Positions 537-62,931 of a stretch of DNA of 64,000 bases are shown here, piece after piece. Under the pieces are notes generated by a model, which worked only from the letters and a program-made list of their open reading frames with translations, ran no database searches and was not told the origin of the DNA. Source of the DNA: a virus (lineage: Duplodnaviria > Caudoviricetes); the IMG/VR virus record IMGVR_UViG_3300027566_000007, positions 1-64,000 of that record. One strand, 5' to 3'. A program made the position numbers and the translations under genes. Each line of letters opens with the position of its first letter. Position 1 is the first letter of the stretch.

Positions 537-543
537 ACGATTC

Positions 544-1368
544 ATGGCAAGAGCACAGACAACACCACAGCTACTTAATTCTGTAACGATGGGTAGCGCA
601 AAAATTGAAATGAGAGCTTACGGATCTTCAGGAGCTTATACTGATCTCGGGCTAGCTTCTGGAATTGAATTTACGGAAACAATAACACCGGCTGAAATTA
701 AGCCTGATAATGCTTCTCCAATTACAGTAGACCTTCAGGAGCATTCAGCCACCGTTAAATTTGACCTTCTTGAGCAGGATCTCACAAAGATCTATGCTTT
801 GAGAGGCGGTTCAGGTGGGCTTGACACATATGCAACCCAAGCGGCTGAAGCAGTCACAGTAACAAATGAACCACATACACTAACAGGTACCAAAATGGTA
901 GCTCTTGATTTTGCTAATGGCGATGGTTCAGAGGTTGGCTCAATTGTAGTTACTGATGCTTCGAGTAATGCAGCCGTTAGAAATACGGATTATGTAATTA
1001 CCATCGGGGCAGACGGTAAAACCTATATTGGGAGAGTGGCAGCATCAACCGTGATTTCCACAGGTGAAGGCGTTCTCGTCGACTATTCTTATACTCCGCT
1101 TGCCAACAAATCACTATCAAGTGGTGGGAAGTCCACAATAGGCTATCTTGAAGTTAAACTCACCAACCTGAAAAATATTTCTGGAACTGATAAGGCAAAG
1201 ACAATTACAGTCTACAAAGTCCAGGTTCAAACCGGCCTAGATTACAAATTCCCGGCTGGGGATTCTACGGACCCGCTATCATATCCTGTTGAATTAAAGG
1301 GGTATGATGATGCTACCAGGACAGCAGGCGATCAACTGTATAAGATTGTTGATGAGCAGGGGGTCTAA
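544..1368 (+). CDS. Major tail tube protein with inserted Ig-like domain
   Basis: DLGLASGIEF...TVKFDLLEQDL N-terminus, LDYKF...SYPVELKG C-terminus; central beta-rich insert; synteny. Confidence 0.8.
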   Translation: MARAQTTPQLLNSVTMGSAKIEMRAYGSSGAYTDLGLASGIEFTETITPAEIKPDNASPITVDLQEHSATVKFDLLEQDLTKIYALRGGSGGLDTYATQAAEAVTVTNEPHTLTGTKMVALDFANGDGSEVGSIVVTDASSNAAVRNTDYVITIGADGKTYIGRVAASTVISTGEGVLVDYSYTPLANKSLSSGGKSTIGYLEVKLTNLKNISGTDKAKTITVYKVQVQTGLDYKFPAGDSTDPLSYPVELKGYDDATRTAGDQLYKIVDEQGV

Positions 1369-1370
1369 GC

Positions 1371-1706
1371 GTGGCTGATGATGTTCAGGATGGCATAAAC
1401 ATTATCGCGCCTCCTATGAAAAGAATCAATTTCTTAGGGGAAATTGTAGAGATCGCTTTTGTGCCAGCCCGTATCGATATCGAATTCAATCGTGTAATTG
1501 AAGAGTGTAAGGCTGGAAAATTGGGTGATTATGAGGGGTTAACACAACTATCAAATTTAATTCTAAAACTTTGCAAATCTAACCCCAATATTACTTATGA
1601 CTGGCTTCTCGATAACGCTTCTTTCGATATGATGACGGATTTCTTCAAAGCAGCCAAAGGGGCAAAAAATGAGAAAGAACCGGAGAAGTCGTCTGGAAAA
1701 AACTAA
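1371..1706 (+). CDS. Tail assembly chaperone (gpG-like)
   Basis: Between tail tube and TMP; ends on slippery heptamer. Confidence 0.75.
   Translation: MADDVQDGINIIAPPMKRINFLGEIVEIAFVPARIDIEFNRVIEECKAGKLGDYEGLTQLSNLILKLCKSNPNITYDWLLDNASFDMMTDFFKAAKGAKNEKEPEKSSGKN
1697..1703 (+). other. -1 programmed frameshift slippery site A AAA AAC
   Basis: The -1 frame is open from 1697 (KKLTIGEIFVQVGIMFAW...) into ORF 1739..1996. Confidence 0.8.
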
Positions 1707-1996
1707 CTATTGGTGAAATATTCGTTCAAGTAGGCATTATGTTTGCATGGGCTACACCAGAACACTTACTTGACAAAATGTCTCTTGATCAAATAATTTA
1801 TTATTATAACGTTGGTTGGGACACCGAGCAGACTAAAGCAAAGGTACATTGGGGCACTTATAGATCTTTGATTTCTGAAAGCAATCCAGACACTCAATCA
1901 AAAAAACAATCAAGACCGGACATCGAAGAATTAAGACTCCATCCAGGATACGAAAACGCATACTACGATGAGAAAGGCAAGTTTCATAAGGAGTAA
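1697..1996 (+). CDS. gpT-like frameshift extension of tail chaperone
   Basis: -1 frame relative to 1371..1706; ends 3 nt before TMP start. Confidence 0.7.
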   Translation, partial: KKLTIGEIFVQVGIMFAWATPEHLLDKMSLDQIIYYYNVGWDTEQTKAKVHWGTYRSLISESNPDTQSKKQSRPDIEELRLHPGYENAYYDEKGKFHKE

Positions 1997-1999
1997 AAA

Positions 2000-10065: not shown

Positions 10066-11633
10066 AATATATTGCCGGTGACGGTACAGGCGATTATGAT
10101 GCAGACGGATCAGGCGATCAAGCCACGATAAACAGGGCGTTGTCCTGGGCGGCTGATAATCCGGGGAACGAAGTACATTTGGTTGGTCCTTACACGTATG
10201 ACATAGGATCTACGGTTCTGATTGGCTCTGATACAAAATTCACAGGCGATTCTACCGCGGTCCTTCGACTCAACAATTCATGTACCTGGAATGTAGGCGT
10301 ACCCATTGTTGGACAGATCGGTGGAACTGGAACAGTTTCAAAAAATATCGAAATTTCGGGTTTTTCGATTGATGGTAACGAAAGCCACTTATACGGGGTC
10401 AATGGGCATATTCGCGGGGAAGGCTACTATAATATGATCCACATCCAGGGCCAGAAAGCAAAGCGCGCTACTAATATCAAAATACATCATATGAAAATGT
10501 ATAACGGTATGGGAGACGGCCCACGCCTTGTATTTTGTGACGATCCTCATGTATATAACTGTGATCTGCAAAACCTCATGCACTGTTCGGTATTTTGTAT
10601 TGAGTGCAACGGGGCCTTAACATTTTCAAACACGATTAAGGCTATTTCATGCTCTGGCGTTCGTTACGATCATTGCAGAAATGGAGCCATCTACAGTAAC
10701 AATATTGCAGATTTCACCGGGACAACAAATGCCCCGAAATTTGGAGAGTACGGCGTCCAGATAGGGTTACAGCCCCCTAAGTACGGACACACTACCCTTG
10801 TAGATAATATCGTAATTCGGGATAATACAATTAACGTTAGCGGTTCAGGAGTACAGTTAGAGGACTACCTAAAATCAGCTGGTTCAACGTCTCAAAAAGT
10901 GACAATCACAAACAATCTCATTAAAGGAGGACAGTACAACGGCGCTGCTTATTTTGCGGGAGTCGTTATCTATTCTTGGGGTAACGGTCTAACAATTTCC
11001 AGAAATACTATCGATGGGTCAGGAAGAGCCGGTATTCTCGGGTATAATGCAATTAATTCAAGCTCAAAAGTGTTTGTTACTTATAATAATATAATTAATA
11101 CTGTAAAACTCGGCGGTGACGGTGGTTATGGAATATGGAACAGAGCTTCGGGCCTGAAAATCTCCGCGTCGAATAACTATCTGTCCGGAAATGTTGCAGG
11201 AAAATATAAGGGAATTACACCTCTTTCAGAGTCTAGTGTCTACCTTGATTATGCAGTTCCGGGAAGCACACCGGAAACACCAGATGAACCTGACGAACCG
11301 GAAGAGCCAGATACTCCAGACGAGCCAGACGTCCCACCTGAAGACCCGCCAGACAATCCAGTAAACCCTGTTGACCCAGATGAACCCTATGTCCCTATAG
11401 AACCAATTGACCCTAATCCGCCTGCTGTAGGCTGTACAGGAATCGCTATTTTATCAGGTGGAAAATATGTGTTTTTACCTTATAAAATTCTAGAAATTGG
11501 GGATGATATGCTCTTAGTTCCTACTGATAACGGGTATATCCCGCTGAAGCTTGCAAATGAAACCGAAAAAGGTTCAAACATTACGATGATCCAGGATAAC
11601 AAAGGCAACTATTACGCAATTGAGGGAGTATAA
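10056..11633 (+). CDS. Right-handed beta-helix (disaggregatase-related) tail protein with Pro/Asp/Glu linker
   Basis: YIAGDGTGDYDADGSGDQATINRAL...GPYTYDIGSTVLIGSDTKFTGDSTAVLRL recalls Methanosarcina disaggregatase-related proteins; PbH1-type N/I repeats; PDEP linker. Confidence 0.7.
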   Translation: MVIKYIAGDGTGDYDADGSGDQATINRALSWAADNPGNEVHLVGPYTYDIGSTVLIGSDTKFTGDSTAVLRLNNSCTWNVGVPIVGQIGGTGTVSKNIEISGFSIDGNESHLYGVNGHIRGEGYYNMIHIQGQKAKRATNIKIHHMKMYNGMGDGPRLVFCDDPHVYNCDLQNLMHCSVFCIECNGALTFSNTIKAISCSGVRYDHCRNGAIYSNNIADFTGTTNAPKFGEYGVQIGLQPPKYGHTTLVDNIVIRDNTINVSGSGVQLEDYLKSAGSTSQKVTITNNLIKGGQYNGAAYFAGVVIYSWGNGLTISRNTIDGSGRAGILGYNAINSSSKVFVTYNNIINTVKLGGDGGYGIWNRASGLKISASNNYLSGNVAGKYKGITPLSESSVYLDYAVPGSTPETPDEPDEPEEPDTPDEPDVPPEDPPDNPVNPVDPDEPYVPIEPIDPNPPAVGCTGIAILSGGKYVFLPYKILEIGDDMLLVPTDNGYIPLKLANETEKGSNITMIQDNKGNYYAIEGV

Positions 11634-36717: not shown

Positions 36718-37248
36718 ATGCCAGCCCAAAAGAAAAGAAAATTAAAGAAACCAAAACAGGTAAATAAAAGTAAAGAATTTACCTGGTCAACAAAACGCAA
36801 AGAAGCGGCGTTATTACTATCAACCGGCTTGAAAACACAGAAAGAAGTCTGTGAGGAAATTCACATCACTGAAAAAACGATGTGTGAATGGAAGAAGTTT
36901 CCGGCCTTTTTAGAGAAAATTGACGAGCTCACTATCAAAAATGAGAATTTCACACGAGCAGGGCTGTTAAAAGAGTGTCTTAAAGGACTTTCTATAAAAA
37001 CTGATCACATATGTGAAGACAGATCAACCCATCTTGATTATGTAAAACTGATTGCGGATTTACAGGGGCACACTAAACAGAAAGTAGAGCTTGATGCAAA
37101 TTTAAAACATTCGAATGAACAAGACCCTGAAGAAATGACTGATGAAGAATTGAGGCAATCGATTAGAGATGATATCACAAAACTTATCACTGCAGGATAT
37201 GTCCAGACAAGAACTACTAAAGATATATCAGCAAGTGAAGAAAACTAA
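36718..37248 (+). CDS. terS: Terminase small subunit (HTH)
   Basis: AALLLSTG...EVCEEIHITEKTMCEWKK HTH; directly upstream of TerL. Confidence 0.75.
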   Translation: MPAQKKRKLKKPKQVNKSKEFTWSTKRKEAALLLSTGLKTQKEVCEEIHITEKTMCEWKKFPAFLEKIDELTIKNENFTRAGLLKECLKGLSIKTDHICEDRSTHLDYVKLIADLQGHTKQKVELDANLKHSNEQDPEEMTDEELRQSIRDDITKLITAGYVQTRTTKDISASEEN

Positions 37249-38761
37249 AAAAAAAGCAAGAGCTGCATCAAAAAAGCTTGCTAAATCAAACTTCCTAAAT
37301 TTCACTCGTTATACCATGGAAGATTTCCGGGAGAGCTGGCACCATAGAAAAATGGCCTCACTTCTTGAAGAATTCGTAAATAAAGAAATAACCAGACTAA
37401 TTATTGACGTTCCTCCAAGACATACCAAATCTGAATTTGTTTCTCGCCGGCTTCCTCCTTATATCTTTGGGCGATTCCCAGATGCTAAAATTATTTCCTG
37501 TTCTTATGGGGCTGACCTGGCTTCTCAAATGAATGGCGACGCACAGGCAATTATGGACGAACATTCTTATCATGAAGTTTTTCCAAATACTTTTTTAAAT
37601 AGTTCAAATGTCAGAACAGTCGCAGGATCTTATAAAAGAAACTCAGATATCTTTGAAATTGTAGGTAGAAAGGGTGTTTATAAATGTGCCGGAGTTGGGG
37701 GCGCAATTACCGGTTATGGTATGGATTACGGCATAATCGATGATTATTTTAAAAATAGAGAAGAAGCCGAGAGCCCCGTATTTAGGGAGAAGCTCTGGAA
37801 ATGGTATATGAGTACCTTCAGATCAAGGAGGCAGAAAAACGCAGCTATCCTTATTACAGCTACTCGATGGCATGAAGACGACCTGGTTGGACGACTATTA
37901 AATCTCGCTGAACAAAATCCAAAGGCGGATCAATGGGAAGTTTTTTCATTACCAGCATTAACTGATGAAGAGCCTATAGCTGAGTATGATGAAAGAACAG
38001 GGCCCAATCAGGCTTTATGGCCAGATGAATTTTCAGTAGACGACCTGCTAAGTACTAAAGCTTCTTTAACTACTTATGAATGGCTTTCACTCTATCAACA
38101 AAGACCGTCTGCAGCAGCAGGCAACCTTGTAAAGAAAGAAGACTTTAAATACTGTACTCTTGAAAACGGAGTTCTTACTCTATTCACTGACAAGGCAGCA
38201 GGCTCTAAAAAACTATTCATGCTTAACCAGTGCAAGGTATTTCAAACATGTGATCCTGCAGCCTCAGAGAAAAAAACAGCTAATGATTTCGTTTTAGCCA
38301 CGTGGGCACAGACTCCAAATAACGACCTTGCTTTAATAGATATCTTAAAAACTAATTTAGAAACCCCTAAACACGTTCCTCTTTTTAAACAACAGTATGT
38401 AAAACACCACCCTCAGCAACAATGGATTGAAACTGATGGAGTAGGCCGGCCAACATTCCAATTATTAAGAGAAGAAGGGCTCCCAATTGCTGAATTAAAA
38501 ACATCAGGGCACGATAAGTTAATTAGGTTTATACCTGCAGCTACAAGGATTACTGCAGGAGCAGTATATTTCTTAGCCGAAGCGCCTTGGTTAACGGCTT
38601 ATGAAAGCGAGCTTTTAGGATTTCCAAACACCAAACAAAACGGCCAGGTCGATGTTACGTCTTATGCTTGCCAGGTAGTTATAGAACATCCATTTATTGT
38701 TGAGTCTTACGAAACAACCTATGTAGGAGAAGGTGTAAGCTCCGGCGGCTTTTGGATATAA
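37169..38761 (+). CDS. terL: Terminase large subunit
   Basis: PPRHTKSE Walker A, GIIDDY Walker B, TRWHEDDLVG, DPAASE...NDF nuclease; start may be ATG 37199. Confidence 0.95.
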   Translation: MISQNLSLQDMSRQELLKIYQQVKKTKKKARAASKKLAKSNFLNFTRYTMEDFRESWHHRKMASLLEEFVNKEITRLIIDVPPRHTKSEFVSRRLPPYIFGRFPDAKIISCSYGADLASQMNGDAQAIMDEHSYHEVFPNTFLNSSNVRTVAGSYKRNSDIFEIVGRKGVYKCAGVGGAITGYGMDYGIIDDYFKNREEAESPVFREKLWKWYMSTFRSRRQKNAAILITATRWHEDDLVGRLLNLAEQNPKADQWEVFSLPALTDEEPIAEYDERTGPNQALWPDEFSVDDLLSTKASLTTYEWLSLYQQRPSAAAGNLVKKEDFKYCTLENGVLTLFTDKAAGSKKLFMLNQCKVFQTCDPAASEKKTANDFVLATWAQTPNNDLALIDILKTNLETPKHVPLFKQQYVKHHPQQQWIETDGVGRPTFQLLREEGLPIAELKTSGHDKLIRFIPAATRITAGAVYFLAEAPWLTAYESELLGFPNTKQNGQVDVTSYACQVVIEHPFIVESYETTYVGEGVSSGGFWI

Positions 38762-38806
38762 CCTTTTTGATTTTCTTTTATCTCTTTTTCCCAACACTCT
38801 TAATAT

Positions 38807-40633
38807 ATGCAATTCCCGAAAGTATCATCCATCTTCCCTTTCTCCAAAAAACTCTCTTCTGCATCTCCATCAAAAGACACCCAAGCAGCCCCTGTAGGTG
38901 CTGGCGTTTCTCAAGTAGGCGGAGATGAATATTCCCACCAAGAAAAATTTAATAAGTGGATCGAGGAAACCAAACACAAGCTCCCACGCGCCACGCCACT
39001 ATTAAGAGAAGAAGCGTTCAGATCTGATCCATTAATCCAGGGCACTATATACCCATATCTCCGAAACGTCCTTCTGAAAGGCTATACAGTCCAGACAGAA
39101 GATAACAAGCTCTACTCGGAAGCCATTCAGGAAATTACGGCATACCTTGAGCAAATTGATATAATGCAGGTATTCCGGGAGGATTTCAAAGATTTTGCAT
39201 TTCTCACCGGCCATACATACCGCAGGGCTGACCCTGACCTTTCAGGCAATATAATAAGGCTTGAAAAGATCGAGCCGTCCACTGTAGAGGTCTTTAACGA
39301 TCCTTGGGACTCTTCAATAATAGCATATCATCAACACGCAAAAGTAAGAACAACATGGTCTTACCTGGGTGCTACAGAAGAAGTAGACAGTTGGTTTATT
39401 CCCTATGGGTCTGATCTGCAGGACGTAAACGCAACATATATTCAAAACAGGGCTACCGGAAACGACCAGAGAGTTTATGATTTATTTACAAAGTATCAAC
39501 AGAACTATTCAATCTCGAATATTTCTAACCTAAGGATAGCGGCTTCTGAGCGCGTTATTTCAATGCACAACTCGGATAAAACACAGAGGCTTTGCAACCA
39601 ATATGACGATTCCGAACAAGTACCTTGCACTCCCGCGCCAATTGATTCCGTTATCCTGGCTATCTGGCTAAAACGGTTACTTTTATCGAATGCGCCTCAC
39701 CTTATTTACGTCGTGATCAATCCTTTCCTACACGCAAAGACCGGTATTCTGAAAGATACTAAAGATACACTTGGACATACTTCTATTATTTCTTCAACAC
39801 CTCAAAAACCATCTACTGCGCTACAAGCTACAAATCCTGTTATTTATAATGACATGCTTCAAAAATATGAGAACTATGTTAAGGAAAATGAAAAAGCTGC
39901 AAATAAAATTCTCGAAAATGTGAAAAATGGTGGCGTTTTTTTATCGGGACCAGACCTGGAAATAAAACCTATCGAATCTGCCAGAAACGTTTCTTATCAA
40001 TTTATTAAAAGTCTTATCGATCAGCTTAATGAGGAAATAGGTCAAGCTTTTGGTTTTCCTATGTCACTCGTCACAGCGACGGGCACAGAGCTCGCAAGCT
40101 CAAGAAACATCTTGCAGATGTTCAATAGTGTGCATGCAGGTGAGCGTATGGAATATGAAAGCGTCGCAAACAAGCTCATTAAAAAACAGTTTGCTGAACG
40201 AACCTGGCAGGGCACTACAACTAAAAACGGTAAAGAGATCCAGGTAACTTACTCTCTTGAAGATATGCAGGTCAATTTTACCCTAGACACTCCAGACGTT
40301 AAAGACCTGCTTGCAGAAGCTCAGGCTTTGAAGGCAAGAGCCGAGACGCTTGTACAACTCAAAGGTATAGGGGCAGGTAAAGAAGACCTTCAGGCACTTG
40401 GAGAAGAGGCAGGATTCGGTATTCTTGCGTTGAATGGTACGCCAGCACCTCAGGCTGAAGGAGCTCAAGGGGATCAAACTAATGCTATAATACAGGCTAT
40501 AATTTCCGAGGCTTTAAGATCGGCAAGTCCTACAGACCCAAGCGGGTTTAAGGACAAAAAAATAACAGAGAGATTACAAGAAGCTTATAAAACGGCTAAA
40601 GAAACAATCGATAAACTTTTCGAGGAACATTGA
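38807..40633 (+). CDS. Portal protein
   Basis: 608 aa after TerL; RLEKIEPSTV and IGQAFGFPMSLV portal-type motifs. Confidence 0.75.
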   Translation: MQFPKVSSIFPFSKKLSSASPSKDTQAAPVGAGVSQVGGDEYSHQEKFNKWIEETKHKLPRATPLLREEAFRSDPLIQGTIYPYLRNVLLKGYTVQTEDNKLYSEAIQEITAYLEQIDIMQVFREDFKDFAFLTGHTYRRADPDLSGNIIRLEKIEPSTVEVFNDPWDSSIIAYHQHAKVRTTWSYLGATEEVDSWFIPYGSDLQDVNATYIQNRATGNDQRVYDLFTKYQQNYSISNISNLRIAASERVISMHNSDKTQRLCNQYDDSEQVPCTPAPIDSVILAIWLKRLLLSNAPHLIYVVINPFLHAKTGILKDTKDTLGHTSIISSTPQKPSTALQATNPVIYNDMLQKYENYVKENEKAANKILENVKNGGVFLSGPDLEIKPIESARNVSYQFIKSLIDQLNEEIGQAFGFPMSLVTATGTELASSRNILQMFNSVHAGERMEYESVANKLIKKQFAERTWQGTTTKNGKEIQVTYSLEDMQVNFTLDTPDVKDLLAEAQALKARAETLVQLKGIGAGKEDLQALGEEAGFGILALNGTPAPQAEGAQGDQTNAIIQAIISEALRSASPTDPSGFKDKKITERLQEAYKTAKETIDKLFEEH

Positions 40634-44831: not shown

Positions 44832-45635
44832 ATGCCTTTCACCATATCAAATTTCAAAAAAACCCTAAAATCCGCTTTTTCTAAACTCGAAAAAGACCAA
44901 TCAGAAGCTTTAGCCGTCGAGATCTCAGCAAACTTTATAGCAGGCCAGACAGCAGCCGAGAAACACAAATCTATTAAATCAGCAGAACCAGAGGACGACG
45001 GCCTAACAGACGAAGAAAAAGCAGAAATAGCAACCCTTACAGCTCTATATCTAGGCTACATCTCTGAATTCAATATCAGAGCACAAACTCAGATACTCAC
45101 CAGGGTCCAGGAGCTTGTCAAGGCAGGCAACAGCCAGGACGAAATACAAAGTTATGTTGATAGTGTCTTTTCAGGCGAAGAGTCTATAGTAATTGATAAT
45201 GTGAGTAAGGAACGTAAAGAAATTTACGTTGATGAAAATCTTAAATTATCCGAAGTTACCAGAACCGTTGAGAATCCATTTTATAGCTCAGTTCTGGCTT
45301 ATGCTTCACTTATTGGGGCGATAGCCTCACACACAGCCTATGAGAAGGGCAAGGAATTGTATAATAAAGCACAGGGTTATAATAAATGGATCTTCTCAGG
45401 CCCCGCCGATGAGCGAGCGAGACCCTGGCACGTTGCTTTGTTGGGTCAGGTGTTTACCTATGGTACGGTACAAAGTAATTATGCTGAACAATGTTTAGGT
45501 GAGCCACGGTGCAGACATAGGAAAGAAGTATGGTATGGGGATTCGAGGGACACGTCCCAGGAAAAATGGGAACAGTTAAAAAGAGATGCTGGTTTATTTT
45601 GGGACGATAAAGCCAAAACCTGGGCTTTGAAATAA
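44832..45635 (+). CDS. Head morphogenesis/minor head protein (SPP1 gp7/Mu F-like)
   Basis: WIFSGPADERARPWHVALLG...EPRCRH. Confidence 0.7.
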   Translation: MPFTISNFKKTLKSAFSKLEKDQSEALAVEISANFIAGQTAAEKHKSIKSAEPEDDGLTDEEKAEIATLTALYLGYISEFNIRAQTQILTRVQELVKAGNSQDEIQSYVDSVFSGEESIVIDNVSKERKEIYVDENLKLSEVTRTVENPFYSSVLAYASLIGAIASHTAYEKGKELYNKAQGYNKWIFSGPADERARPWHVALLGQVFTYGTVQSNYAEQCLGEPRCRHRKEVWYGDSRDTSQEKWEQLKRDAGLFWDDKAKTWALK

Positions 45636-50380: not shown

Positions 50381-50794
50381 TTAAAACGCCTTCTCAATTC
50401 TTTTCCAAATCCATTTCGGCAACACTCTCTTAACTCCTGTACTAAGCCAATCAGTAATAATATGTAGATACTGGGGAACTATCAACCCGATAAACCACCA
50501 TCCTGTGAAATATACTCCTAATACCCAGACGACGGCCCAGAATATAGGATTATGCAGCATCCCTCTATGATGAAACAGCATATCAATTATCCAACCGATG
50601 AAACCTAATCGTTTTCTTGATTTCGAATTTGTATCAAGGTCTGGAGTAATATATCGAGTTCCGATTACCCATAAGATTGAGAAATATACTAAATGTTGAA
50701 TTTTCAAATGGATTACTATGGAGGATGTTAATAGAAGGGATATGGCAACTATTAAGGAGATATAATTTAAGACTTCGTGATGTTTTCCGTTCAT
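50381..50794 (-). CDS. DUF2227/YdjM-like membrane metal-binding hydrolase
   Basis: GKHH...PDLD...HRGMLH...HIITD plus TM helices. Confidence 0.7.
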   Translation of the reverse strand: MNGKHHEVLNYISLIVAISLLLTSSIVIHLKIQHLVYFSILWVIGTRYITPDLDTNSKSRKRLGFIGWIIDMLFHHRGMLHNPIFWAVVWVLGVYFTGWWFIGLIVPQYLHIITDWLSTGVKRVLPKWIWKRIEKAF

Positions 50795-54689: not shown

Positions 54690-54735
54690 TATATATTTGT
54701 TTGTCTCTAGTCAACTTCAGACAAACAAATATATA
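54690..54735. promoter_or_regulatory. Perfect 17-bp inverted repeat between divergent operons
   Basis: TATATATTTGTTTGTCT-N12-AGACAAACAAATATATA. Confidence 0.75.
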
Positions 54736-55062
54736 CATAGACGACTAATTTACAGTACCTATAAAAAATAAACTGTTAAACAGAGGTAAAATAATGAAAA
54801 TATTTGAAAAGAATAACACAATGACAAGCAAGCCTTGCAAGCCATGTGGTGGAGACGTTGAAAATTACTTTGATGACAATTTCAAGGAAAAAGAGCAGGA
54901 AATCAAAAACGGTAGAAGATAAGGTGAGAAAATGAGCAAACACGAAGATGCACAATATAAAAAATTAAGTCAAAAAATGTCTAACACAGTCAGTGACCGT
55001 GAATATGGCGGGCAGATGAATAAATTAGCAGACCGTGACCTGAAAAATATGAGGCAGAGAAA

Positions 55063-55536
55063 ATGAAAGTAGGAAAAATATTCACATTGTTTTTAGTTTC
55101 AATGCTTTTCCTTTCGATTAGCATTGGAACGGTAATGGCAAGCAGTGATGAAGAAGACAAAGAACTTGTCATAAAAGACGACAGTGGTAATGTTAAAGAA
55201 GATTCCACAGGAAACGCTGGAAAAATTCCCGAAATTGGTAATCTAAGTACACCATCCACGGCTGAAGACATAACAGGCGACCTCGGGATTTTATCAGGAC
55301 TTGGGGATTTTATTATAAAGTACGCAGTTCAAATAACAATTTTTGTTATGGTGTTGGCAGCTGTGATTCTTAATCTTAGGGGCTCGTGGGCTCGTGGTAA
55401 TAACAATCTGGATGACGCAGTTACTGCTCAAAAGAATCAAAAAGGTCTACTCGAAGACGGTATCTATGTAATGGCCGTGCTTTTGTTTATTTTCTGCGTT
55501 TTTGCGCCTTTCGTTAAAAGCTTCATTCAGCAATGA
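55063..55536 (+). CDS. VirB2/TrbC-like pilin candidate
   Basis: Leader peptide plus two hydrophobic helices separated by a short polar loop; first large gene of operon. Confidence 0.5.
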   Translation: MKVGKIFTLFLVSMLFLSISIGTVMASSDEEDKELVIKDDSGNVKEDSTGNAGKIPEIGNLSTPSTAEDITGDLGILSGLGDFIIKYAVQITIFVMVLAAVILNLRGSWARGNNNLDDAVTAQKNQKGLLEDGIYVMAVLLFIFCVFAPFVKSFIQQ

Positions 55537-55546
55537 GGAATGTACA

Positions 55547-55753
55547 ATGGATGAAAGAGCAAGAGAGGACATGATTATAGGGGTCGCTGCCTGCATTGAA
55601 GCCAATCATTGCGCTATCAAACGTGATGACATCTATAAAAAGTTCAAGAATACTAAGCGTGAGGAGTTGAAGTACATAATCGAGATCATGAAGGATCGCA
55701 GGATGCTTCAGTATGATGAAAATAGAGATTTGTACAGACTAATTATCAGATGA
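55547..55753 (+). CDS. Small winged-helix-like protein
   Basis: REELKYIIEIMKDRRMLQYDE. Confidence 0.45.
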   Translation: MDERAREDMIIGVAACIEANHCAIKRDDIYKKFKNTKREELKYIIEIMKDRRMLQYDENRDLYRLIIR

Positions 55754-55921
55754 ATTTGAATGACAAAAGAGGTTATAATATGGCTATAAAACTCGGAAAA
55801 TGGGATATACAGACAATAGAACACGGTGGAGAAATCAAAAAATTCGAACGTGTGAGGCTTGGATCAGTCTGGACTCCTGTATGTAAATCTTCTAAAGAGA
55901 AAACAAAGCGTTCGTGATCAG

Positions 55922-57355
55922 ATGAATGTTTTTCGTCTCTCTGCAATTCTTATTTTTTTACTGGTTTTTGGCTCACAGGTAGCCTATGCAGGAGACGAAC
56001 AGATCACGTTAAGTCCTGATGGATCTCATTCTAATCAAAACCAAATAAACAAAGCTTTTGAGCAGGGTAATGTCTACCTCAAAGCCGGTGTTTATGAGGT
56101 CGATAATACTATTATAATAGGCTCAGATCGTGTTTTAACTGGAGATCCGGACGCTATTATTAGAGTTTATTCTGGATCATCACAATGGTTTACAGGCGCT
56201 ACAGGTGTGATAAGTTGCTCTGGAATCGTTGATAACATCGAAATTTCAAATATCCAAATTGATGGAAATATAGGCAGTCTGCCGAAAAGTTATGCAAATT
56301 CAAGAGCGGATACAGACCACGATTGCGAAAAATTAATAATACTCCGTGGTTCATCAACCCAGTTTGCAAAAAACATCAAGATCCATAACCTTAAACTTTA
56401 TAATTCTTTTTCAGATGGTATTTATATAATTTTTGGCGAGAACATCCAATGTTATGACAATTTCATTAGCAATTGCCAGCATGAAGGTATTTATTACTCT
56501 TGCCTTAAAAATAGTGAGTTTTTCAGAAATAAAATAGCTGGTATATGCAGTGATGCAGCCAGGCTTGACAACTGTGTAAACTGCAAAGTACATGATAATT
56601 ACTTTTTTTCATACAATGGGGAAAGTTACGGCCAATATAAAGGCGGTCAAGCTGGTTTGCAAATTGCTAATGCAGGATCTAGTCACGGTTACGATGCTAG
56701 TAAAAAACCTCAAAAAACGGATAATGTTGAGGTATATAATAACGTGTTTGCAGACCCAGGGAGACAGGCTATCTGGCTGCATAATTATGATGGCAATGTG
56801 TATGTTCACGACAATTCATTTATTGATGCTGCCAGCCTTGAAACGCAGGGAATACCCGTAGGTGATATCTCAGTCGATAATCCTCCATCAGTTGAAACAT
56901 CAGAAAAAGTATTCACCAATATAATTGATTTTTTGAAACGTGATTACATTTTCCAATATCCAGCAGTTAAGCATGATTTTAAAGCCTCTGTGACTGTAAC
57001 AAGTCTCAACAGCTCTATAAAACAGTCTTCAACAGTGAGAGTATCAGGAAAACATCTCAGCGTTATAAAATTTGAGTATAATGGAATTACAACAAAGCAT
57101 TTCATTGAACGTAATATGTGGGTAGGGGAACTGTCTCACATAGGAAATGATCTTTATATCCCGGGAAAAATACAGCCTGAAAAATTACATATCACCGTAT
57201 ACGGCAAAGCTGGTTTTCAGAAAGTTGAAAATGTTAAGATCACTGAGGTTAGCTCTGCCGGAGTCAGTATTAACCCTAACTTTTTTATTTTCATTGCCGT
57301 TTTGGCAATCTGCGGTCTTTCAATAGCAAGAAATTTTAGGAGAATGATTCAATGA
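55922..57355 (+). CDS. Secreted, C-terminally anchored beta-helix (disaggregatase-like) protein
   Basis: Signal peptide MNVFRLSAILIFLLVFGSQVAYA; NQINKAF...IIIGSDRVLTGD..AII; PbH1 repeats; C-terminal TM. Confidence 0.7.
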   Translation: MNVFRLSAILIFLLVFGSQVAYAGDEQITLSPDGSHSNQNQINKAFEQGNVYLKAGVYEVDNTIIIGSDRVLTGDPDAIIRVYSGSSQWFTGATGVISCSGIVDNIEISNIQIDGNIGSLPKSYANSRADTDHDCEKLIILRGSSTQFAKNIKIHNLKLYNSFSDGIYIIFGENIQCYDNFISNCQHEGIYYSCLKNSEFFRNKIAGICSDAARLDNCVNCKVHDNYFFSYNGESYGQYKGGQAGLQIANAGSSHGYDASKKPQKTDNVEVYNNVFADPGRQAIWLHNYDGNVYVHDNSFIDAASLETQGIPVGDISVDNPPSVETSEKVFTNIIDFLKRDYIFQYPAVKHDFKASVTVTSLNSSIKQSSTVRVSGKHLSVIKFEYNGITTKHFIERNMWVGELSHIGNDLYIPGKIQPEKLHITVYGKAGFQKVENVKITEVSSAGVSINPNFFIFIAVLAICGLSIARNFRRMIQ

Positions 57356-58437
57356 TAAAAAGAGCGATAGCACTGACATTTTGTTTATTACTTTTATGTA
57401 GTTATGTAGCGGCTGCTGCTACGAACACTAACTTAACCGACTCAAAACACACCAGTAATGACAGCAAAGACAAACAGGCAACATCCCAAGGAAAGGTTAC
57501 CAGTCTATCAAATTCGACAGAAAACAGTAAAAACAATTCATCGAGCTCAGATTCAAATATCAAATCCGAAGAAGTGGATAATGGTAATTTCTTAACCAAT
57601 GCGGTTTCGTCTGGTATAGCCCTCTTTCTTAAGGGGCTATTCGATGGCATGTATACTGATGTATATGCAGACGGGTATGGCCCAGGAGAAACAGGCACTA
57701 TAACAAACGGCACTGAGTACACAAATTCTACGTATGATGGTATTTATACAGCCATAACAAGCGTCCCACATCCATATGAAGATGATAAAATAGTTAAACT
57801 ATATGGTGGATACCTGAACCTAACACTATTTTGCATCTCAATTTTCGTTTTTGGCGCACTAACCAGCCGAAGTATTGCGCGGATGAAACTTAACAAAAAC
57901 CTAAATTTAACACAGTCGGCTTTCGTTGGTGGAATTGCAACTTGTCTTTTTGCGCTGGTTACAAATATTATCTACGCTGGCATACTGGATACAATCGAAG
58001 TACTTAATAATTTTATAACACTTCCAGCAATGCCAGCACTGGCCCCAGACCCTAGCAATCTGTTATTGTGTATTGTACAGACATTTTGTGATTTGGTATT
58101 GTTTGTATTTTTCATTATCCGGTACTATATCTTATATATTGTCGCGGTTGGTTGCTCAATTATTGCGGTTCTTCTCGTTCCAGAATTCACCAGGGACTTT
58201 TCAGAAAAATGCCTTGAAAAAATAGCTAGAATTCTTGCACTTCAACCAGCCGCCCTTTTCGTGTACGTAGTCTGTGTAATTTCTGCGGATAGTCTACCTG
58301 GTAGCTTAAAAGCATTTGCGCATATCGGGACAACTGTAATGGTTTCCGTGACATGTTGGTATTTCATGTTTGGAAATTTTACACTCTTGAAAAGAGGAAT
58401 ATCATACACAGTTAGGAAAGGAGTTGGAAAAATATGA
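57352..58437 (+). CDS. VirB6/TrbL-like polytopic membrane protein
   Basis: Signal peptide, S/N-rich spacer, about 6 TM helices, FIIRYYILYIVAVGCSIIAVL segment. Confidence 0.6.
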   Translation: MIKRAIALTFCLLLLCSYVAAAATNTNLTDSKHTSNDSKDKQATSQGKVTSLSNSTENSKNNSSSSDSNIKSEEVDNGNFLTNAVSSGIALFLKGLFDGMYTDVYADGYGPGETGTITNGTEYTNSTYDGIYTAITSVPHPYEDDKIVKLYGGYLNLTLFCISIFVFGALTSRSIARMKLNKNLNLTQSAFVGGIATCLFALVTNIIYAGILDTIEVLNNFITLPAMPALAPDPSNLLLCIVQTFCDLVLFVFFIIRYYILYIVAVGCSIIAVLLVPEFTRDFSEKCLEKIARILALQPAALFVYVVCVISADSLPGSLKAFAHIGTTVMVSVTCWYFMFGNFTLLKRGISYTVRKGVGKI

Positions 58438-59342
58438 ACAACGACACACCTTATGGACAGCCTAAAGCGCCGGTAACGATTACAAAAATAAAATCAGACA
58501 GATTCCTAGATTTGACCAATTTACATACCTGGATTATGTTTATCGCTATTGGTCTATGTATGTACTTTTTCAAAATGATTGCTTTGTCTACTTTGGATGC
58601 AGACCGGTTAATGTATGCATCATTACTTCTATTGGTAGTGTTTTTATGGGTAAAATACTTCAGAAACGATGAACTTGTAGAATTTCAGAAAGACCGGTTT
58701 ATATTTTTCATTGCAGACATTAGGGGAAAGCATGTTATTGATGCCTTCTCCGAGCAACTTAAAACACTGATGAAAATTATCTCAATAGCAGCTATTCACG
58801 AAGGTGGTATTATAGAATTCCAGAGCAATCAAAGCGGTTTTATTCACTGGTTAAAAAGACTCTTTAAACTCGAAGTTAGAAAGCCTAATGAATTTGGAGT
58901 ACTTTTTGAAACTTTTCCACCCAGGATATCAGATGAGTATCGAGAAATCCACGAGGCAAAGCAGGAAAAGGTTGTTAACGGTCTTCCTGTGAACACTCTA
59001 TATGAGAGTATAGCCTGCTCTGTTTTGGAGCCAAAGAAACCGGTACTTCAGTATCTTTTAGAGCTTCAAAAAACATCAGGTGGTAAAGCAAACGATCAGC
59101 TTCTTGCAGACATGTATCTGCAGATTAGCCAGGACGAAGACCAGGTCATAAGCTGGAGATATTTTAAGTTCTTAAGTCTTGGTCAACAAAAAAATATTGA
59201 AGCAGCCAGAATACAGTTTGGAGCCGTAGTCCCTGGTTTGCTCCATAGTATGTCAGCAGCATCATTACACCCCACTGTTTTGACAGACGAATGGGACATA
59301 ATCAATGCATACCAAATAATGTTAGGGGAGGTTTCTATATGA
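58434..59342 (+). CDS. VirB3/PrgI-like two-TM protein with cytoplasmic domain
   Basis: Two N-terminal TMs; directly upstream of VirB4-like ATPase. Confidence 0.5.
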   Translation: MNNDTPYGQPKAPVTITKIKSDRFLDLTNLHTWIMFIAIGLCMYFFKMIALSTLDADRLMYASLLLLVVFLWVKYFRNDELVEFQKDRFIFFIADIRGKHVIDAFSEQLKTLMKIISIAAIHEGGIIEFQSNQSGFIHWLKRLFKLEVRKPNEFGVLFETFPPRISDEYREIHEAKQEKVVNGLPVNTLYESIACSVLEPKKPVLQYLLELQKTSGGKANDQLLADMYLQISQDEDQVISWRYFKFLSLGQQKNIEAARIQFGAVVPGLLHSMSAASLHPTVLTDEWDIINAYQIMLGEVSI

Positions 59343-61858
59343 GCCTTTTTAAGAGCCTTAGAAGAAGCTGGAAGAAAGCAGGTGAAAAGGCTGTCGATCT
59401 TTCCTGGAATAGATCTTATGCTAAGAAAATACTGCCATCAAGAATCGAGATCTTCGATACGAACCTGCTTTTTAATCAAAGAACGGTAGTTAGGTGTCTG
59501 GTGTGTGGAACTGAAATGCATTCTGGTGCAGAAGGATACCCTAGGAATTTTTCGAGCCGAACTATGGAAGCAATACAGGCTATAAGCTTCCAGGGTGTCA
59601 AAATTATGATGTCAACTGGCCTGATTCAAATCCCAGGTGGTAGGACGAAAGAGGTGCTGCAAAGAGCTAACTTTGATGCCGAGAAGCAACAGCTTGTTAA
59701 TCAGTTGGAAAAAGCAGGCAGTAAAGATTTAGAATTAATGATGAAGTCAAACGATATAGTACAGAATTATTCAGAAATTTATCATAAAAATCAAAAAACA
59801 TTTCATGCAAGCTTGATAGTGGTTCTAAAAGGTCCACATAATAAGGTTTTCGAGGCAGAGAGTCAGATAATTAATATTATTCGCGGAGAAAGCATTGAAA
59901 TAGACATCCCAACAAGAAAACAAATGGAGATGCTGCAAACCGCTTTACCAGGTCCGGACTCTCATCCTCGTTCGTGGGTGGAAGTGAGAACTTCAGGAGC
60001 TGCAGTATTAACTTCTGCTACGAACCTCAACAGCCGGACAGATAACGAGGGGATGGTGTGGGGAAAAGACCTACTTACAAACAATCAGGTTGTTTTTGAT
60101 CTGGATAACCTGGCATCTAAACATATGGTCGTTTGTGGCCCCACCAGATCAGGGAAAACCTATGCTTTCATGATGCTACTTATGAGGCTTCTGTACCTGC
60201 GAAATGCAAGAGTAATATATACAACACCAAAGGGTGATATTGGCACGAATTACCGGTCTGTAGCTGGCTTCTTTGGGGAAAAAGGATGTGTAGCTGATAT
60301 TGGCCTAAATGGTACTGAGTATCTTAATCCCTTGGATATCCTGGTAGACGAAGAAAGTATCGGGAATTCCCCACAGGCGTATGCTAAAGCTTATGATCTA
60401 AAAAAGGACGTGTTAATTCATGCTCACCGTATCTGGTTAGGTAATGAATTTACTTCGAATATGGAAAGTTATCTTGATGAAAGTATGGATTGGGTTTATG
60501 AGCAAGCAAAGGTCTTCAGGGATGATCCGGCAAGTTTCAAAAATCAAATGCCTGTGTACAACAACATGAGGTATAAATGGGAACTTGACAAGGAAAATAA
60601 AAACTTAGGGACAAAAGCAAAAACAGCAGAGGCTCTTTATAACAAAAGTTATCAGTTTTCAGAAACAGGGCTGTTCAATAGGTACAATAACCAGACAAAA
60701 GGACTCAATTTAAACAAGGATTTCATTATTATTGACATGGCAGGAGTTCCAGAGGCAATTAAGCCATTCATGAGCGTAATAGTTAACGGCACACTTGCAA
60801 CCAGGTTTTCAACAGACGTTGAACGAGAGACTTATCTGGCAGTGGACGAAGGAGCAGTATACCTCAGGGATAAAGAGCTTGCAGGGAACCTTCTCAGGAC
60901 GCTTACACAGGGAGCCTCACATAAATTTTATTTATGGCTGGCTACTCAACAGGCAAGCGATTTCAAGAAGAATAATGTTTCAGAAGAATTCCAGGCCAAC
61001 ACTTTTATCAGTATTGTTTTAGGAAACAACTTAAAGGGCGCAGCCGTTAGGATAGCAAAAGACTATTTTGATCTTACCGACGAAGAGTGCTCAATTCTTG
61101 CAGGCTGCACAGTCGGAGAAGGTCTGCTACTCTTCGGAGATGAACGAGTACCTATCAGGTTTGAATCCACTCCAACTGAAAATAAGATCATCAAAGGTGA
61201 AGGGTATACAGGGGAAAATATTACGCCCGGTGTTGAATTTGCATTTAAGAAAGAATACAAGTGGTTAATAAACGAGCAAAGAATGGTACTTTCTGACTGG
61301 ATTGAAGGTGACCGTGACATATTATTACAACGTGGCTATGAAAAACACAAGGTAGCCAGAGTCAACAAACCAGGAAGGGTAGTAGCATTTTTCCCCAAAG
61401 GTGCGGTAATAAACGACAAAATGAGAATACCGCATATAGGGACCATGTCATTAGATCACTACGCTTCCGTGGTCCAAATTGGAGCACTCATGCAGGATGA
61501 AAAATTTGAGGAAATAACGATAAACCATAATGACGAGGAGGATTTACGCGGGAAAAAGAACGGAATAATACTGGCCATCGAGTACGAGAAAAAAGGATCT
61601 CATACTACTGAACAATTGCTAGAAAAGAAGCGTGCCGCGCTCGAAAAAGGCATGGAAGTAAGGTTTATATGCAGTTCGGAAGACTACCCATTCATTGCGG
61701 GCATCGTAGGAGAAGATTACTGCCTTCAGAGAGGGGCAGCCGTCGCCGAATTCTTACACAATTTCGGCAATCAGAAACCGATAACAGTAGAAACCCTTGT
61801 TTCTGAAACATTGGTGGAACTTACAGAAGAAACAGAGGCTTTAGAAGCCTTAGATTGA
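59339..61858 (+). CDS. virB4: VirB4-like conjugation ATPase with C-terminal nuclease-like domain
   Basis: FDLDN...HMVVCGPTRSGKT, LNPLD, LAVDEG, LATQQASDF, GEGLL; tail H...NH....DL...AIEYE. Confidence 0.8.
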   Translation: MSLFKSLRRSWKKAGEKAVDLSWNRSYAKKILPSRIEIFDTNLLFNQRTVVRCLVCGTEMHSGAEGYPRNFSSRTMEAIQAISFQGVKIMMSTGLIQIPGGRTKEVLQRANFDAEKQQLVNQLEKAGSKDLELMMKSNDIVQNYSEIYHKNQKTFHASLIVVLKGPHNKVFEAESQIINIIRGESIEIDIPTRKQMEMLQTALPGPDSHPRSWVEVRTSGAAVLTSATNLNSRTDNEGMVWGKDLLTNNQVVFDLDNLASKHMVVCGPTRSGKTYAFMMLLMRLLYLRNARVIYTTPKGDIGTNYRSVAGFFGEKGCVADIGLNGTEYLNPLDILVDEESIGNSPQAYAKAYDLKKDVLIHAHRIWLGNEFTSNMESYLDESMDWVYEQAKVFRDDPASFKNQMPVYNNMRYKWELDKENKNLGTKAKTAEALYNKSYQFSETGLFNRYNNQTKGLNLNKDFIIIDMAGVPEAIKPFMSVIVNGTLATRFSTDVERETYLAVDEGAVYLRDKELAGNLLRTLTQGASHKFYLWLATQQASDFKKNNVSEEFQANTFISIVLGNNLKGAAVRIAKDYFDLTDEECSILAGCTVGEGLLLFGDERVPIRFESTPTENKIIKGEGYTGENITPGVEFAFKKEYKWLINEQRMVLSDWIEGDRDILLQRGYEKHKVARVNKPGRVVAFFPKGAVINDKMRIPHIGTMSLDHYASVVQIGALMQDEKFEEITINHNDEEDLRGKKNGIILAIEYEKKGSHTTEQLLEKKRAALEKGMEVRFICSSEDYPFIAGIVGEDYCLQRGAAVAEFLHNFGNQKPITVETLVSETLVELTEETEALEALD

Positions 61859-61957
61859 AACGGTACATAGAGAGACACTCTATGTATTATACTAAAAACT
61901 ATCCACAGCAGGGCATTTTAAATACTATTATGACTATTACTATGTATGGATAGGAAA

Positions 61958-62098
61958 ATGATAAAATGTCCTGCGTGTGGGTATGAATGGATTTACAAAG
62001 GTAAAAAGTTAAAAATGATTGCCGAAGGAAAACGGGTTTATTTAACTTGCCCTACATGCAGGACTAATGTAAAAGTGGAGTCAAAAGAGGTTGAGTGA
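61958..62098 (+). CDS. Small Zn-ribbon protein (46 aa)
   Basis: CPACG...CPTCR. Confidence 0.6.
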   Translation: MIKCPACGYEWIYKGKKLKMIAEGKRVYLTCPTCRTNVKVESKEVE

Positions 62099-62931
62099 TG
62101 GCATCTCGTAGGTTTTTTTCAGATGATGAGCTTCTTAGAGTGTTATCTTCAGTACCTCAACCAACTTCTGCGATTAGTTCTGCTATAAAATGTTCACCCG
62201 ACGCGGCTCGGAAGCGTTTAAGACTGTTACATGACGCGGGTATAATAGAAATGACAGAAATTCCGTTCAATACAAAAATTAGAAAAATATACATGTGGAG
62301 CAAAAAAGAAGCACCTGTCAAAAACAACACACCAGATCATTATCTTATTTGTAAACAATGTAAACGATTAAAACCTATACGTGACTTTTCTACGTTACAT
62401 GGAAAGTATATAACTATGTGTAAGAGCTGCAAGAATGAAAATTATAGGAGAAATTATAAACTTAAACAATTAACAAATGAATTAAAATCAAAAGAGAAAG
62501 AATTGATCAATTTTAGAGAATATTCCACTGGAAATAAAATTGATCTATATATAAAAAAAGCACAAGAGATTGACAAAATAAGTAAACAAATTTTTAGGAT
62601 TAAAAACTGGTACAGAATACGAAACCGAGAACGTATTTATGGGACCAAAGTATCAGGAAAACTCTCAAAAATGAAAGCCAACTCTAAACGTCGATTTTTA
62701 GGGTTTAACCCGATAAATGAATATTTCAAAGGTTCTGAATATCACCATCTTCGATATAATACAAATGGTCAAAAAGATGATGATATTGGTATCTTTATAC
62801 CACGCGATATACATCGTTCCGTGCCACATAACGGCGTAACGGGAATGGGGATGGATGAAATGAATTCAATAGCCATTAAATGGTATAATTCAAATGGTGG
62901 AAACCTGAACTACTCTATACAGACTGTATAG
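62095..62931 (+). CDS. HTH + Zn finger + HNH-like endonuclease
   Basis: N-terminal HTH; CKQC..K...F...CKSC; YHHL...IPRDIH..VPH. Confidence 0.55.
   Translation: MMASRRFFSDDELLRVLSSVPQPTSAISSAIKCSPDAARKRLRLLHDAGIIEMTEIPFNTKIRKIYMWSKKEAPVKNNTPDHYLICKQCKRLKPIRDFSTLHGKYITMCKSCKNENYRRNYKLKQLTNELKSKEKELINFREYSTGNKIDLYIKKAQEIDKISKQIFRIKNWYRIRNRERIYGTKVSGKLSKMKANSKRRFLGFNPINEYFKGSEYHHLRYNTNGQKDDDIGIFIPRDIHRSVPHNGVTGMGMDEMNSIAIKWYNSNGGNLNYSIQTV

Follow-up and report, generated by a model that had tools for sequence, protein, structure and literature searches.

Viruses are held apart from conjugative elements as a distinct class of mobile DNA, each having a transfer device of its own. Why, then, does a tailed virus carry what looks like a conjugation operon, and what could the operon do for its carrier? 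The locus that raises this question lies in a 64,000-nucleotide stretch of DNA (the window), which comprises bases 1 to 64,000 of the single 73,340-bp virus record IMGVR_UViG_3300027566_000007, rated 100% complete by CheckV. Among the sequencing runs listed as containing this DNA, the single one with all of it is a groundwater metagenome, probably the source run, and no RNA run is included. A reading made from the letters alone (the sequence-only reading) had described a coupled plus-strand operon of pilin-like, beta-helix, polytopic membrane, two-transmembrane and VirB4-like genes, and our analysis bears out its open reading frames (ORFs), overlaps and predicted topologies. We interpret the operon as a compact machine derived from a type IV secretion system (T4SS) for contact-dependent DNA transfer. 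Of the possible readings we place first that it exports the DNA of its carrier, with an assigned probability of about 0.48. DNA transfer is favored because of the predicted VirB4 and TrbL ancestry, because the motor bears a nuclease-like domain, and because the cassette is the only transfer device visible in the capsid-less elements that also carry it.

The operon spans 54794-61858 on the plus strand and contains four 4-nucleotide ATGA start/stop overlaps, at 55063/55066, 57352/57355, 58434/58437 and 59339/59342 (Table 1). The reading frames stand as previously drawn, while the lengths of homologues moved two starts: the beta-helix gene begins at 55925 and not at a TTG at 55859, and the ATPase gene begins at 59339 and not at 59291. 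Compared with a relative whose ATPase is 91% identical, five of the six larger genes have ratios of nonsynonymous to synonymous divergence (dN/dS) of 0.05 to 0.15 at a synonymous divergence (dS) of about 1 to 2; for the sixth, which encodes a 68-aa protein that matched no family, dS is saturated and the amino acid identity is 78%. These estimates indicate that the six larger genes are under purifying selection. The coding status of the two leading ORFs is doubtful: they are poorly conserved (29 to 41% amino acid identity; dN/dS, 0.4 to 0.9), and similar-sized genes are called in a related locus (L032). The cassette tolerates local change. In one relative, a YopX-family ORF is inserted between the two-transmembrane gene and the ATPase gene (L011:9502-9909), and in another the two-transmembrane gene is called in two pieces of 190 and 128 aa (L055:8749-9758).

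VirB4 is the hallmark ATPase of type IV secretion systems. The ATPase of the operon has the Walker A motif GPTRSGKT, and the first of its NCBIfam matches was conju_CD1110, a VirB4-like family (2.3e-27, 95.6 bits), with residues 122-623 of the 855-aa ORF aligned to profile positions 262-735. Lower scores were obtained for CedB (45.6 bits), followed by TraC, HerA_antiphage (31.5 bits) and VirB4_CagE. The sole sequence match in the PDB was the Thermoanaerobacter VirB4 (4AG5; 8.8e-7). When a model built from 23 homologues (predicted local distance difference test score [pLDDT], 73) was searched with Foldseek, the top four hits were VirB4 structures (4AG5/4AG6; E about 1e-16; template modeling score [TM-score], 0.75 to 0.77 of the target), followed by DndH-C, R388 TrwK/VirB4 and HerA. 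Profile alignment with hhalign to PrgJ of pCF10 gave 95% probability (E 3.2e-8) over 424 columns. The VirB4-like identification is thus shared by three methods: sequence searches against profile families and the PDB, fold comparison, and hhalign. Because all scores fall far below the family cut-offs (95.6 versus 325 bits for conju_CD1110 and 45.6 versus 700 for DNA_import_CedB, the latter aligned only near the P-loop at residues 247-319), the ATPase is assigned by sequence and model to a distant branch of the VirB4 class, outside the CD1110 family proper. Classification as a HerA or packaging ATPase was rejected, with HerA and FtsK scoring below VirB4 by sequence and HerA structures ranking lower. 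Pfam DUF87 and FtsK_SpoIIIE aligned short P-loop stretches only, unlike the VirB4 models, which also align part of the N-terminal domain. One homologue (P0025, 1219 aa) aligns with 68% of the query at 62% identity. It is longer by about 370 residues and matches Pfam PF05204, which we take to be a homing-endonuclease family; the extra residues suggest an intein within a VirB4-like gene.

The motor carries a further domain at its C terminus. Residues 625-839 were modeled separately from ten homologues (pLDDT, 85), and VIA-align placed nucleases of the PD-(D/E)xK type at the top: VC1899 (Z 9.6), Can2 (9.5), Hjc (8.6) and VRR-NUC (8.2), scores slightly higher than a background that is usually Z 7 to 8, with CheY-like folds from Z 8.0 downward. 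Foldseek returned a weak list led by Hjc resolvases (best, 5.9e-3) and restriction enzymes. In a ten-sequence alignment of the domain reaching down to 29% identity, D706-H707-Y708, N729-H730, D735, E748-Y749-E750 and K763 are invariant; across the 23 homologues, H707, H730, E748, E750 and K763 are invariant, and D706 and D735 are present in at least 90%. A search of 1.84 billion representatives found the domain in 185 clusters. All full-length matches (790 to 1260 aa) bear it C-terminally, the shorter matches are probably fragments, and no free-standing form was clearly evident among the 185 clusters. Because the domain, with its invariant acidic and lysine residues, was found only fused to this ATPase family, a role in handling DNA is indicated, and we conclude with moderate confidence that it is probably an active nuclease fused to the motor.

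An ATPase combined with a PD-(D/E)xK domain is a common pairing in defense, and accessory hotspots of prophages often hold defense genes. The fusion could accordingly be read as a membrane-bound ATPase-nuclease that destroys the incoming DNA of superinfecting viruses or conjugating elements. PADLOC matched the ATPase domain to mad8 (7.6e-18, 63 bits) and to HerA models (2e-8, 25 to 31 bits), the fold neighbors include the defense ATPases DndH-C, SIR2-HerA and DUF4297-HerA, and the cassette sits in a variable block of small genes between the MuF-like and scaffold genes. HerA-NurA and HerA-nuclease complexes likewise pair an ATPase of the same superfamily with a nuclease acting on DNA; the cassette differs from them in having a fused PD-(D/E)xK domain, a VirB4-class ATPase and three coupled envelope proteins. 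We consider exclusion or defense improbable: the VirB4 score of 95.6 bits exceeds those of mad8 (63) and HerA (31), with VirB4 models extending into the N-terminal domain, and none of the five partner proteins matches any PADLOC model. Nor are a channel of the TrbL type, a pilin-like component and a depolymerase for secretion known as features of defense systems.

The partner proteins are assigned with support of differing kinds. The 361-aa polytopic protein shares 202 features (0.91) with a TrbL_4 cluster of the ESM Atlas, and its ten best named matches all belong to the TrbL clan; the stored Atlas model gives TM-scores of 0.61/0.52 to a TrbL_3 cluster and of 0.50 to 0.61 over TrbL_3, TraJ and TrbL clusters. 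Pfam and NCBIfam searches returned nothing for this protein, and hhalign to PrgH was negative. On this one source of evidence, the protein is predicted to be TrbL/VirB6-like, as the sequence-only reading had it. The 157-aa protein combines a signal peptide with two hydrophobic helices linked by a basic loop (RGSWAR), as judged from a seven-homologue alignment and hydropathy, and its Atlas neighbors (0.89 to 0.90) include clusters in which 11 to 41% of the members carry T4SS_pilin or TrbC. Searches of the whole genome with Pfam T4SS_pilin, TrbC, PrgI and Maff2 found no match, nor did the seven-homologue profile match anything in the PDB, the CedA1 and TedC pilins being absent at E values up to 10. 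The two-transmembrane protein has a conserved cytoplasmic domain of about 225 aa (mean column identity, 61% in alignment A4); it matched no family, and hhalign to PrgI gave a probability of 0.6%. The idea that its cytoplasmic domain supplies the missing N-terminal part of VirB4 found no support in hhalign against the PrgJ N terminus. The earlier VirB2 and VirB3 labels are therefore tentative, drawn from topology, gene order and, for the pilin-like protein, the Atlas lead, and sequence profiles do not back them.

The remaining large component is predicted to be a secreted, membrane-anchored enzyme of the right-handed beta-helix type. It matches Pfam Beta_helix (9.6e-8) and Pect-lyase_RHGA_epim (3.1e-5), its homologues in one locus (L010) carry Disaggr_assoc, and it is a candidate for a depolymerase acting locally on the cell matrix. 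Its presence raises a further alternative, in which the cassette moves no DNA and instead builds an adhesive filament or secretes and anchors the beta-helix enzyme, altering the aggregation of lysogens. Of the six conserved proteins, three have signal peptides and belong to the envelope, a beta-helix component is kept in every cassette clade, and the virus genome holds four beta-helix enzymes; in bacterial systems, moreover, VirB4 is required for pilus biogenesis. Such a pilus or surface-remodeling machine is nevertheless distinctly unlikely, as it would leave a conserved nuclease-like domain with intact catalytic-type residues without a role, and the known archaeal systems derived from T4SSs move DNA (PMC9905601).

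Among characterized systems, a close parallel in gene order is the conjugation module of pCF10 from Enterococcus faecalis, which belongs to the monoderm MPF_FATA class. The succession of VirB6-like, two-transmembrane and VirB4 genes equals PrgH-PrgI-PrgJ, small membrane proteins are encoded upstream in both, and an envelope-degrading enzyme is adjacent in both (the pCF10 wall hydrolase, with the beta-helix enzyme as its likely counterpart). The pCF10 series runs PrgH-PrgI-PrgJ-PrgK; PrgH is polytopic, the VirB4 of pCF10 belongs to the CD1110 family, and the gene for the hydrolase comes after it. The likeness to the MPF_FATA core extends to the ATPase, whose best family is conju_CD1110 and whose hhalign probability to PrgJ is given above. 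The cassette differs in that no relaxase was recognized in it and that it lacks MobC, a VirB8-like protein and a coupling protein of the VirD4 type. Its ATPase has an N-terminal domain about 185 residues shorter than that of PrgJ and an extra C-terminal nuclease-like domain, the beta-helix enzyme replaces a peptidoglycan hydrolase, the two-transmembrane protein gains the 225-aa domain, and the carrier is a tailed virus. Archaeal conjugative plasmids and integrative and conjugative elements (the Sulfolobus pNOB8 type and thaumarchaeal examples; PMC6563490) resemble the cassette in possessing VirB4, VirB6 and VirB3 homologues and no recognizable relaxase; they differ in having a second ATPase of the VirD4/TraG type and often type IV pilus genes and in not forming virions.

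The other archaeal systems for comparison are the DNA-transfer systems Ced, of Sulfolobales and Aeropyrum, and Ted, of Thermoproteales, whose components do not match one another by sequence (Beltran et al. 2023, PMC9905601). Like them, the cassette is archaeal and small, comprising a pilin-like protein, a predicted channel of the VirB6 type and an ATPase resembling VirB4; no relaxase was recognized, a coupling protein is absent, there are chromosomal copies, and the signal peptide predicted for its pilin-like protein recalls that of TedC, which is reportedly cleavable (PMC9905601). Unlike them, it has no significant PDB match to the CedA1 or TedC pilins; its ATPase, at 45.6 bits, is not a CedB ortholog; it resides mostly on mobile elements and not at a fixed host locus; it includes a beta-helix enzyme; and its nuclease-like domain is part of the motor protein itself, while in Ted loci HerA/Rad50 are encoded by neighboring, separate genes. 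The comparison bears on direction. The set of components that the cassette shares with Ced and Ted is one that imports DNA (PMC9905601), and the cassette could likewise draw DNA from neighboring cells, with the virus benefiting through lysogenic conversion or recombination partners. CedB is the second-best NCBIfam family (3.8e-12), the motor nuclease could degrade one strand on uptake, stand-alone copies lie between cellular genes in two genomes (G146 and G031), and the four cellular genomes bearing the cassette lack a related terminase or capsid match. We judge import rather unlikely, given that most of the contexts read are mobile (five viruses and five capsid-less elements), that the ATPase occurs in only 4 of 151 sampled genomes of one family, unlike a domesticated housekeeping system, and that the CedB score lies far below its cut-off (45.6 versus 700 bits).

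The viral contexts were compared to determine how firmly the operon belongs to its carrier. Five diverged contigs of tailed viruses, assembled independently (JGI, ENA, Logan and IMG/VR), have the cassette in the same place, with a MuF-like gene on one side and the scaffold/capsid genes on the other; their VirB4 identities are 45 to 79%. The closest, a 40-kb IMG/VR contig (G001), has the operon at the same place and is 65% identical in the terminase, 60% in the portal-position gene and 79% in VirB4, so that cassette and virus core genes diverge in step. The same arrangement was found in contigs from JGI (L012; VirB4 identity, 61%), Logan (L011; 46%) and ENA (L007; 45%), where MuF or small minus-strand genes are followed by the cassette, a scaffold gene, an HK97-type capsid gene, adaptors and tail genes; L011 and L012 have Phage_Mu_F genes at the matching position. 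A chimeric assembly was rejected because the same adjacency recurs in five independent assemblies. Insertion as an independent element with its own attachment sites or target-site duplication was likewise rejected, since neither the cassette nor the 45.7-65.5 kb block is flanked by exact direct repeats, only one integrase was found, and cassette and core co-diverge. The claim that the operon lies within one element, with virus-like genes on both sides, thus holds, and the linkage recurs in related tailed viruses. From these comparisons, the operon is an integral, long-resident part of a tailed-virus lineage.

This placement would also suit a function in virion assembly, egress or entry, since in five viruses the operon shares the strand of the structural genes and sits between the MuF-like and scaffold/capsid genes. 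Such a function is highly improbable. The cassette occurs on chromosomes and in capsid-less elements without nearby capsid, terminase or tail genes, related proviruses with 42 to 48% identical terminases are found in genomes that lack the cassette, and in the present virus a normal terminase is present and the cassette has its own divergent promoter region.

What is new here is that the cassette also occurs in capsid-less elements and between cellular genes of Methanosarcinaceae genomes. In four loci (L024, L053, L054 and L055) it lies beside D5/DUF5906 primase-helicases, DNA polymerase A, archaeo-eukaryotic primase (AEP) or restriction-modification genes, capsid genes being absent within 10 kb, and no other transfer device was visible in the flanks read of the capsid-less elements. 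A 1071-aa form of the ATPase, 27% identical, lies with Cdc6 and AbiGi. In a 4.3-Mb genome (G146, C6 3081-10086; L019), the five-gene cassette is found, intact like the other cellular copies, between the gene for alkaline phosphatase and those for PsiE, PspA, an ArsR-V4R regulator, DUF2110 and Trm1; of this locus, the alkaline phosphatase gene is all that recurs in three related complete genomes, and the locus is not syntenic, leaving the insertion borders undefined. A second copy adjoins genes for lysine-2,3-aminomutase and a GNAT acetyltransferase (G031 C48; L021), and a third lies beside radical-SAM, insertion sequence and toxin-antitoxin genes (L052). The four cassette-bearing cellular genomes have no Terminase_6N or Linocin_M18 match. 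The family to which a Methanosarcina metagenome-assembled genome (MAG) belongs was sampled with 151 genomes, of which 4 have the ATPase and 5 different ones a related terminase. A FastTree phylogeny of 66 ATPases, with the 1071-aa group taken as root, has non-viral lineages on its deepest branches and intermixes viral, capsid-less and chromosomal contexts in the two main clades, the known contexts being too few to fix a direction. Judged by these contexts, the cassette is a self-contained, portable module that is shared and exchanged among mobile elements of Methanosarcinales.

The family members that bear source names come from Methanosarcina sp., a Methanosarcinales archaeon and an ANME-2 cluster archaeon, and the integrase of the virus has a 67% DNA match to two genomes of the family of the Methanosarcina MAG. 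Together with the Disaggr_assoc domain, these make a Methanosarcinales host likely, and Methanosarcina itself is a likely host on indirect evidence. To our knowledge, no conjugation system has been described for the capsid-less elements of these archaea. It is conceivable, if on balance unlikely, that the cassette is their common mating device and that the virus represents a temperate tailed lineage of Methanosarcinales with two routes of spread, by virions and by a minimal conjugation-like machine that pairs VirB4 with a nuclease and dispenses with relaxase and coupling protein.

The analysis shows which genes are present, the VirB4 class of the ATPase, the nuclease-like fold of its C terminus, and how the cassette is conserved, selected and distributed among elements; how the products might assemble, whether DNA is the substrate, in which direction it would move and how the virus would benefit are inferred. 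Transcription would start from the operon's own AT-rich promoter region, a stretch that contains a palindrome and lies opposite a small divergent ORF. The beta-helix enzyme, anchored in the membrane, would open the cell matrix locally, the TrbL/VirB6-like protein would form the channel, the pilin-like protein would form a short pilus or line the channel, and the two-transmembrane protein would tether VirB4, as a hexamer, to the membrane. The nuclease domain on the motor could nick or cut DNA that the motor then feeds through, replacing the missing relaxase and coupling protein. In the virus, the likeliest substrate would be the element's own DNA, giving a second, particle-free route between neighboring cells.

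Several observations count against export of the carrier's DNA. No coupling protein (VirD4/TraG/TcpA) is present: among the ORFs of at least 100 aa in the 73-kb genome, only two have a canonical Walker A motif, the VirB4-like ATPase and a RecA/AAA_24-like protein, the large terminase being without one. No relaxase family was recognized in the approximately 45 ORFs scanned with Pfam, some small ORFs lying outside that scan. These surveys agree with the sequence-only reading, which had seen neither a separate relaxase nor a coupling protein; the fused nuclease-like domain and the upstream palindrome are candidates only for counterparts of a relaxase and a transfer origin. The pilin and VirB3 assignments draw no support from any sequence profile. 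Copies amid ordinary cellular genes, in Methanosarcinaceae genomes without a related terminase or capsid match, fit a host-serving system too. Finally, the closest relaxase-less archaeal systems, Ced and probably Ted, import rather than export DNA (PMC9905601).

A conserved, selected conjugation-type operon in complete tailed viruses blurs the boundary between viruses and conjugative elements and offers a testable case of a virus possibly spreading without particles in dense cell aggregates, where the diffusion of virions is poor. No earlier candidate for a conjugation-type system would exist in Methanosarcinales, which include key methane producers and, in ANME-2, methane oxidizers; the operon could thus provide a basis for genetic tools. 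The VirB4-nuclease fusion suggests a DNA-processing route for archaeal systems without relaxase and coupling protein, a matter left open by Beltran et al. 2023 (PMC9905601). A literature search on VirB4 with Methanosarcina, archaeal tailed viruses and virus-conjugative hybrids found no published description of the cassette.

The control region can be described further. A 147-bp AT-rich spacer lies 5′ of the operon and faces the divergent 64-aa ORF, possibly a small DNA-binding regulator, AbrB/SpoVT-like by its sequence pattern. At the same spot upstream of the operon, two relatives have an identical, perfect 52-bp palindrome (26+26 nucleotides; L032:4964-5015 and L003:5740-5791), although their cassette proteins differ by 10 to 45%; the inverted repeat of the window is a different one. 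These repeats may serve as an operator, as a bidirectional promoter or as a transfer origin.

The record is the genome of a head-tail virus, and the features that place the operon in it are collected in Table 1.

Table 1. Features of the operon and its virus genome. Positions are those of the window; entries marked "genome" lie past the window end and are numbered in the 73,340-bp record.
Feature	Position	Strand	Remarks
Tail module	0.1-16.3 kb		
Tape measure	2000-6166		phrog_1272, 1.9e-93
Beta-helix protein	10056-11633		tail module
Disaggregatase-related beta-helix protein	20984-22366		lysis-position cassette
Tyrosine integrase	23711-24913	-	only integrase found
Early genes	25-36 kb		
Large terminase	37169-38761	+	phrog_38, 1.2e-90
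Portal-position gene, 608 aa	after terminase (pair spans 37169-40633)	+	portal label from position and size alone
MuF-like head morphogenesis gene	44832-45635	+	Pfam Phage_Mu_F, 6.8e-5; G001 homologue 62% identical
Block of small ORFs	45.8-54.6 kb	-	precedes operon
DUF2227 metal-binding membrane protein	50381-50794	-	8.3e-12; in accessory block
Divergent ORF, 64 aa	54452-54646	-	homologues adjoin cassette in L002, L007 and L011; no Pfam match
Inverted repeat, 22-nt arms	54690-54735		AT-rich divergent intergenic region
Small ORF, 42 aa	54794-54922	+	coding status doubtful
Small ORF, 44 aa	54932-55066	+	coding status doubtful
Pilin-like protein, 157 aa	55063-55536	+	signal peptide and two hydrophobic helices (hydropathy)
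Soluble protein, 68 aa, conserved	55547-55753	+	homologues of 67-71 aa in G001, L002, L012, L024 and L032
Beta-helix protein, 476 aa	55925-57355	+	signal peptide and C-terminal transmembrane segment; transfer cassette
TrbL/VirB6-like polytopic protein (predicted), 361 aa	57352-58437	+	signal peptide and about 5 transmembrane segments
Two-transmembrane protein, 302 aa	58434-59342	+	2 transmembrane segments; VirB3/PrgI position
ATPase, 839 aa	59339-61858	+	predicted VirB4-class part 59339-61210
PD-(D/E)xK (restriction-endonuclease-like) domain (probable), fused to ATPase	61211-61858	+	last ~200 residues
Zinc-ribbon ORF (50 aa), then 278-aa protein	61946-62931		3′ of ATPase; 4-nt overlap
Scaffold-like gene	genome 65617		
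Major head protein	genome 67244-68206		phrog_1650
Beta-helix fiber, head-proximal	genome 69091-71277		
Head-tail adaptors	genome, closing the record		

The MuF-like gene is the final virion gene ahead of the accessory block. The record is circularly permuted: its closing adaptor genes have counterparts in the relative G001 that lead directly into those of its opening genes. The cut falls at the junction of head-tail adaptor and tail genes (window 1-2000 and genome 71300-73340). On the map, the operon therefore has the MuF-like gene before it and the scaffold/capsid genes after it. Neither direct nor inverted repeats were found at the ends of the record, which the IMG/VR entry lists as linear with no end repeats.

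Beta-helix proteins are distributed over four modules of the genome (tail, lysis-position cassette, transfer cassette and head-proximal fiber), which fits a host enclosed in a polysaccharide matrix. ARAGORN detected no tRNA or tmRNA gene across the whole window, including 26800-28050. The GenBank phage collection yielded no near DNA match and one weak protein match, to an unannotated 6.8-kb record. The published Methanosarcina tailed virus MetMV was considered and set aside as another genome (67.8 kb, 42.7% GC); its publication, as read, names no conjugation genes. The DUF2227 gene in the accessory block recurs near the cassette in L011 and L012. Downstream of the ATPase gene, the 278-aa protein has a helix-turn-helix at its N terminus (HTH_20, 4.7e-4), paired cysteines and a motif resembling HNH (phrog_2255 HNH endonuclease, 1.1e-5); as G001 does not conserve this protein, it probably lies outside the cassette.

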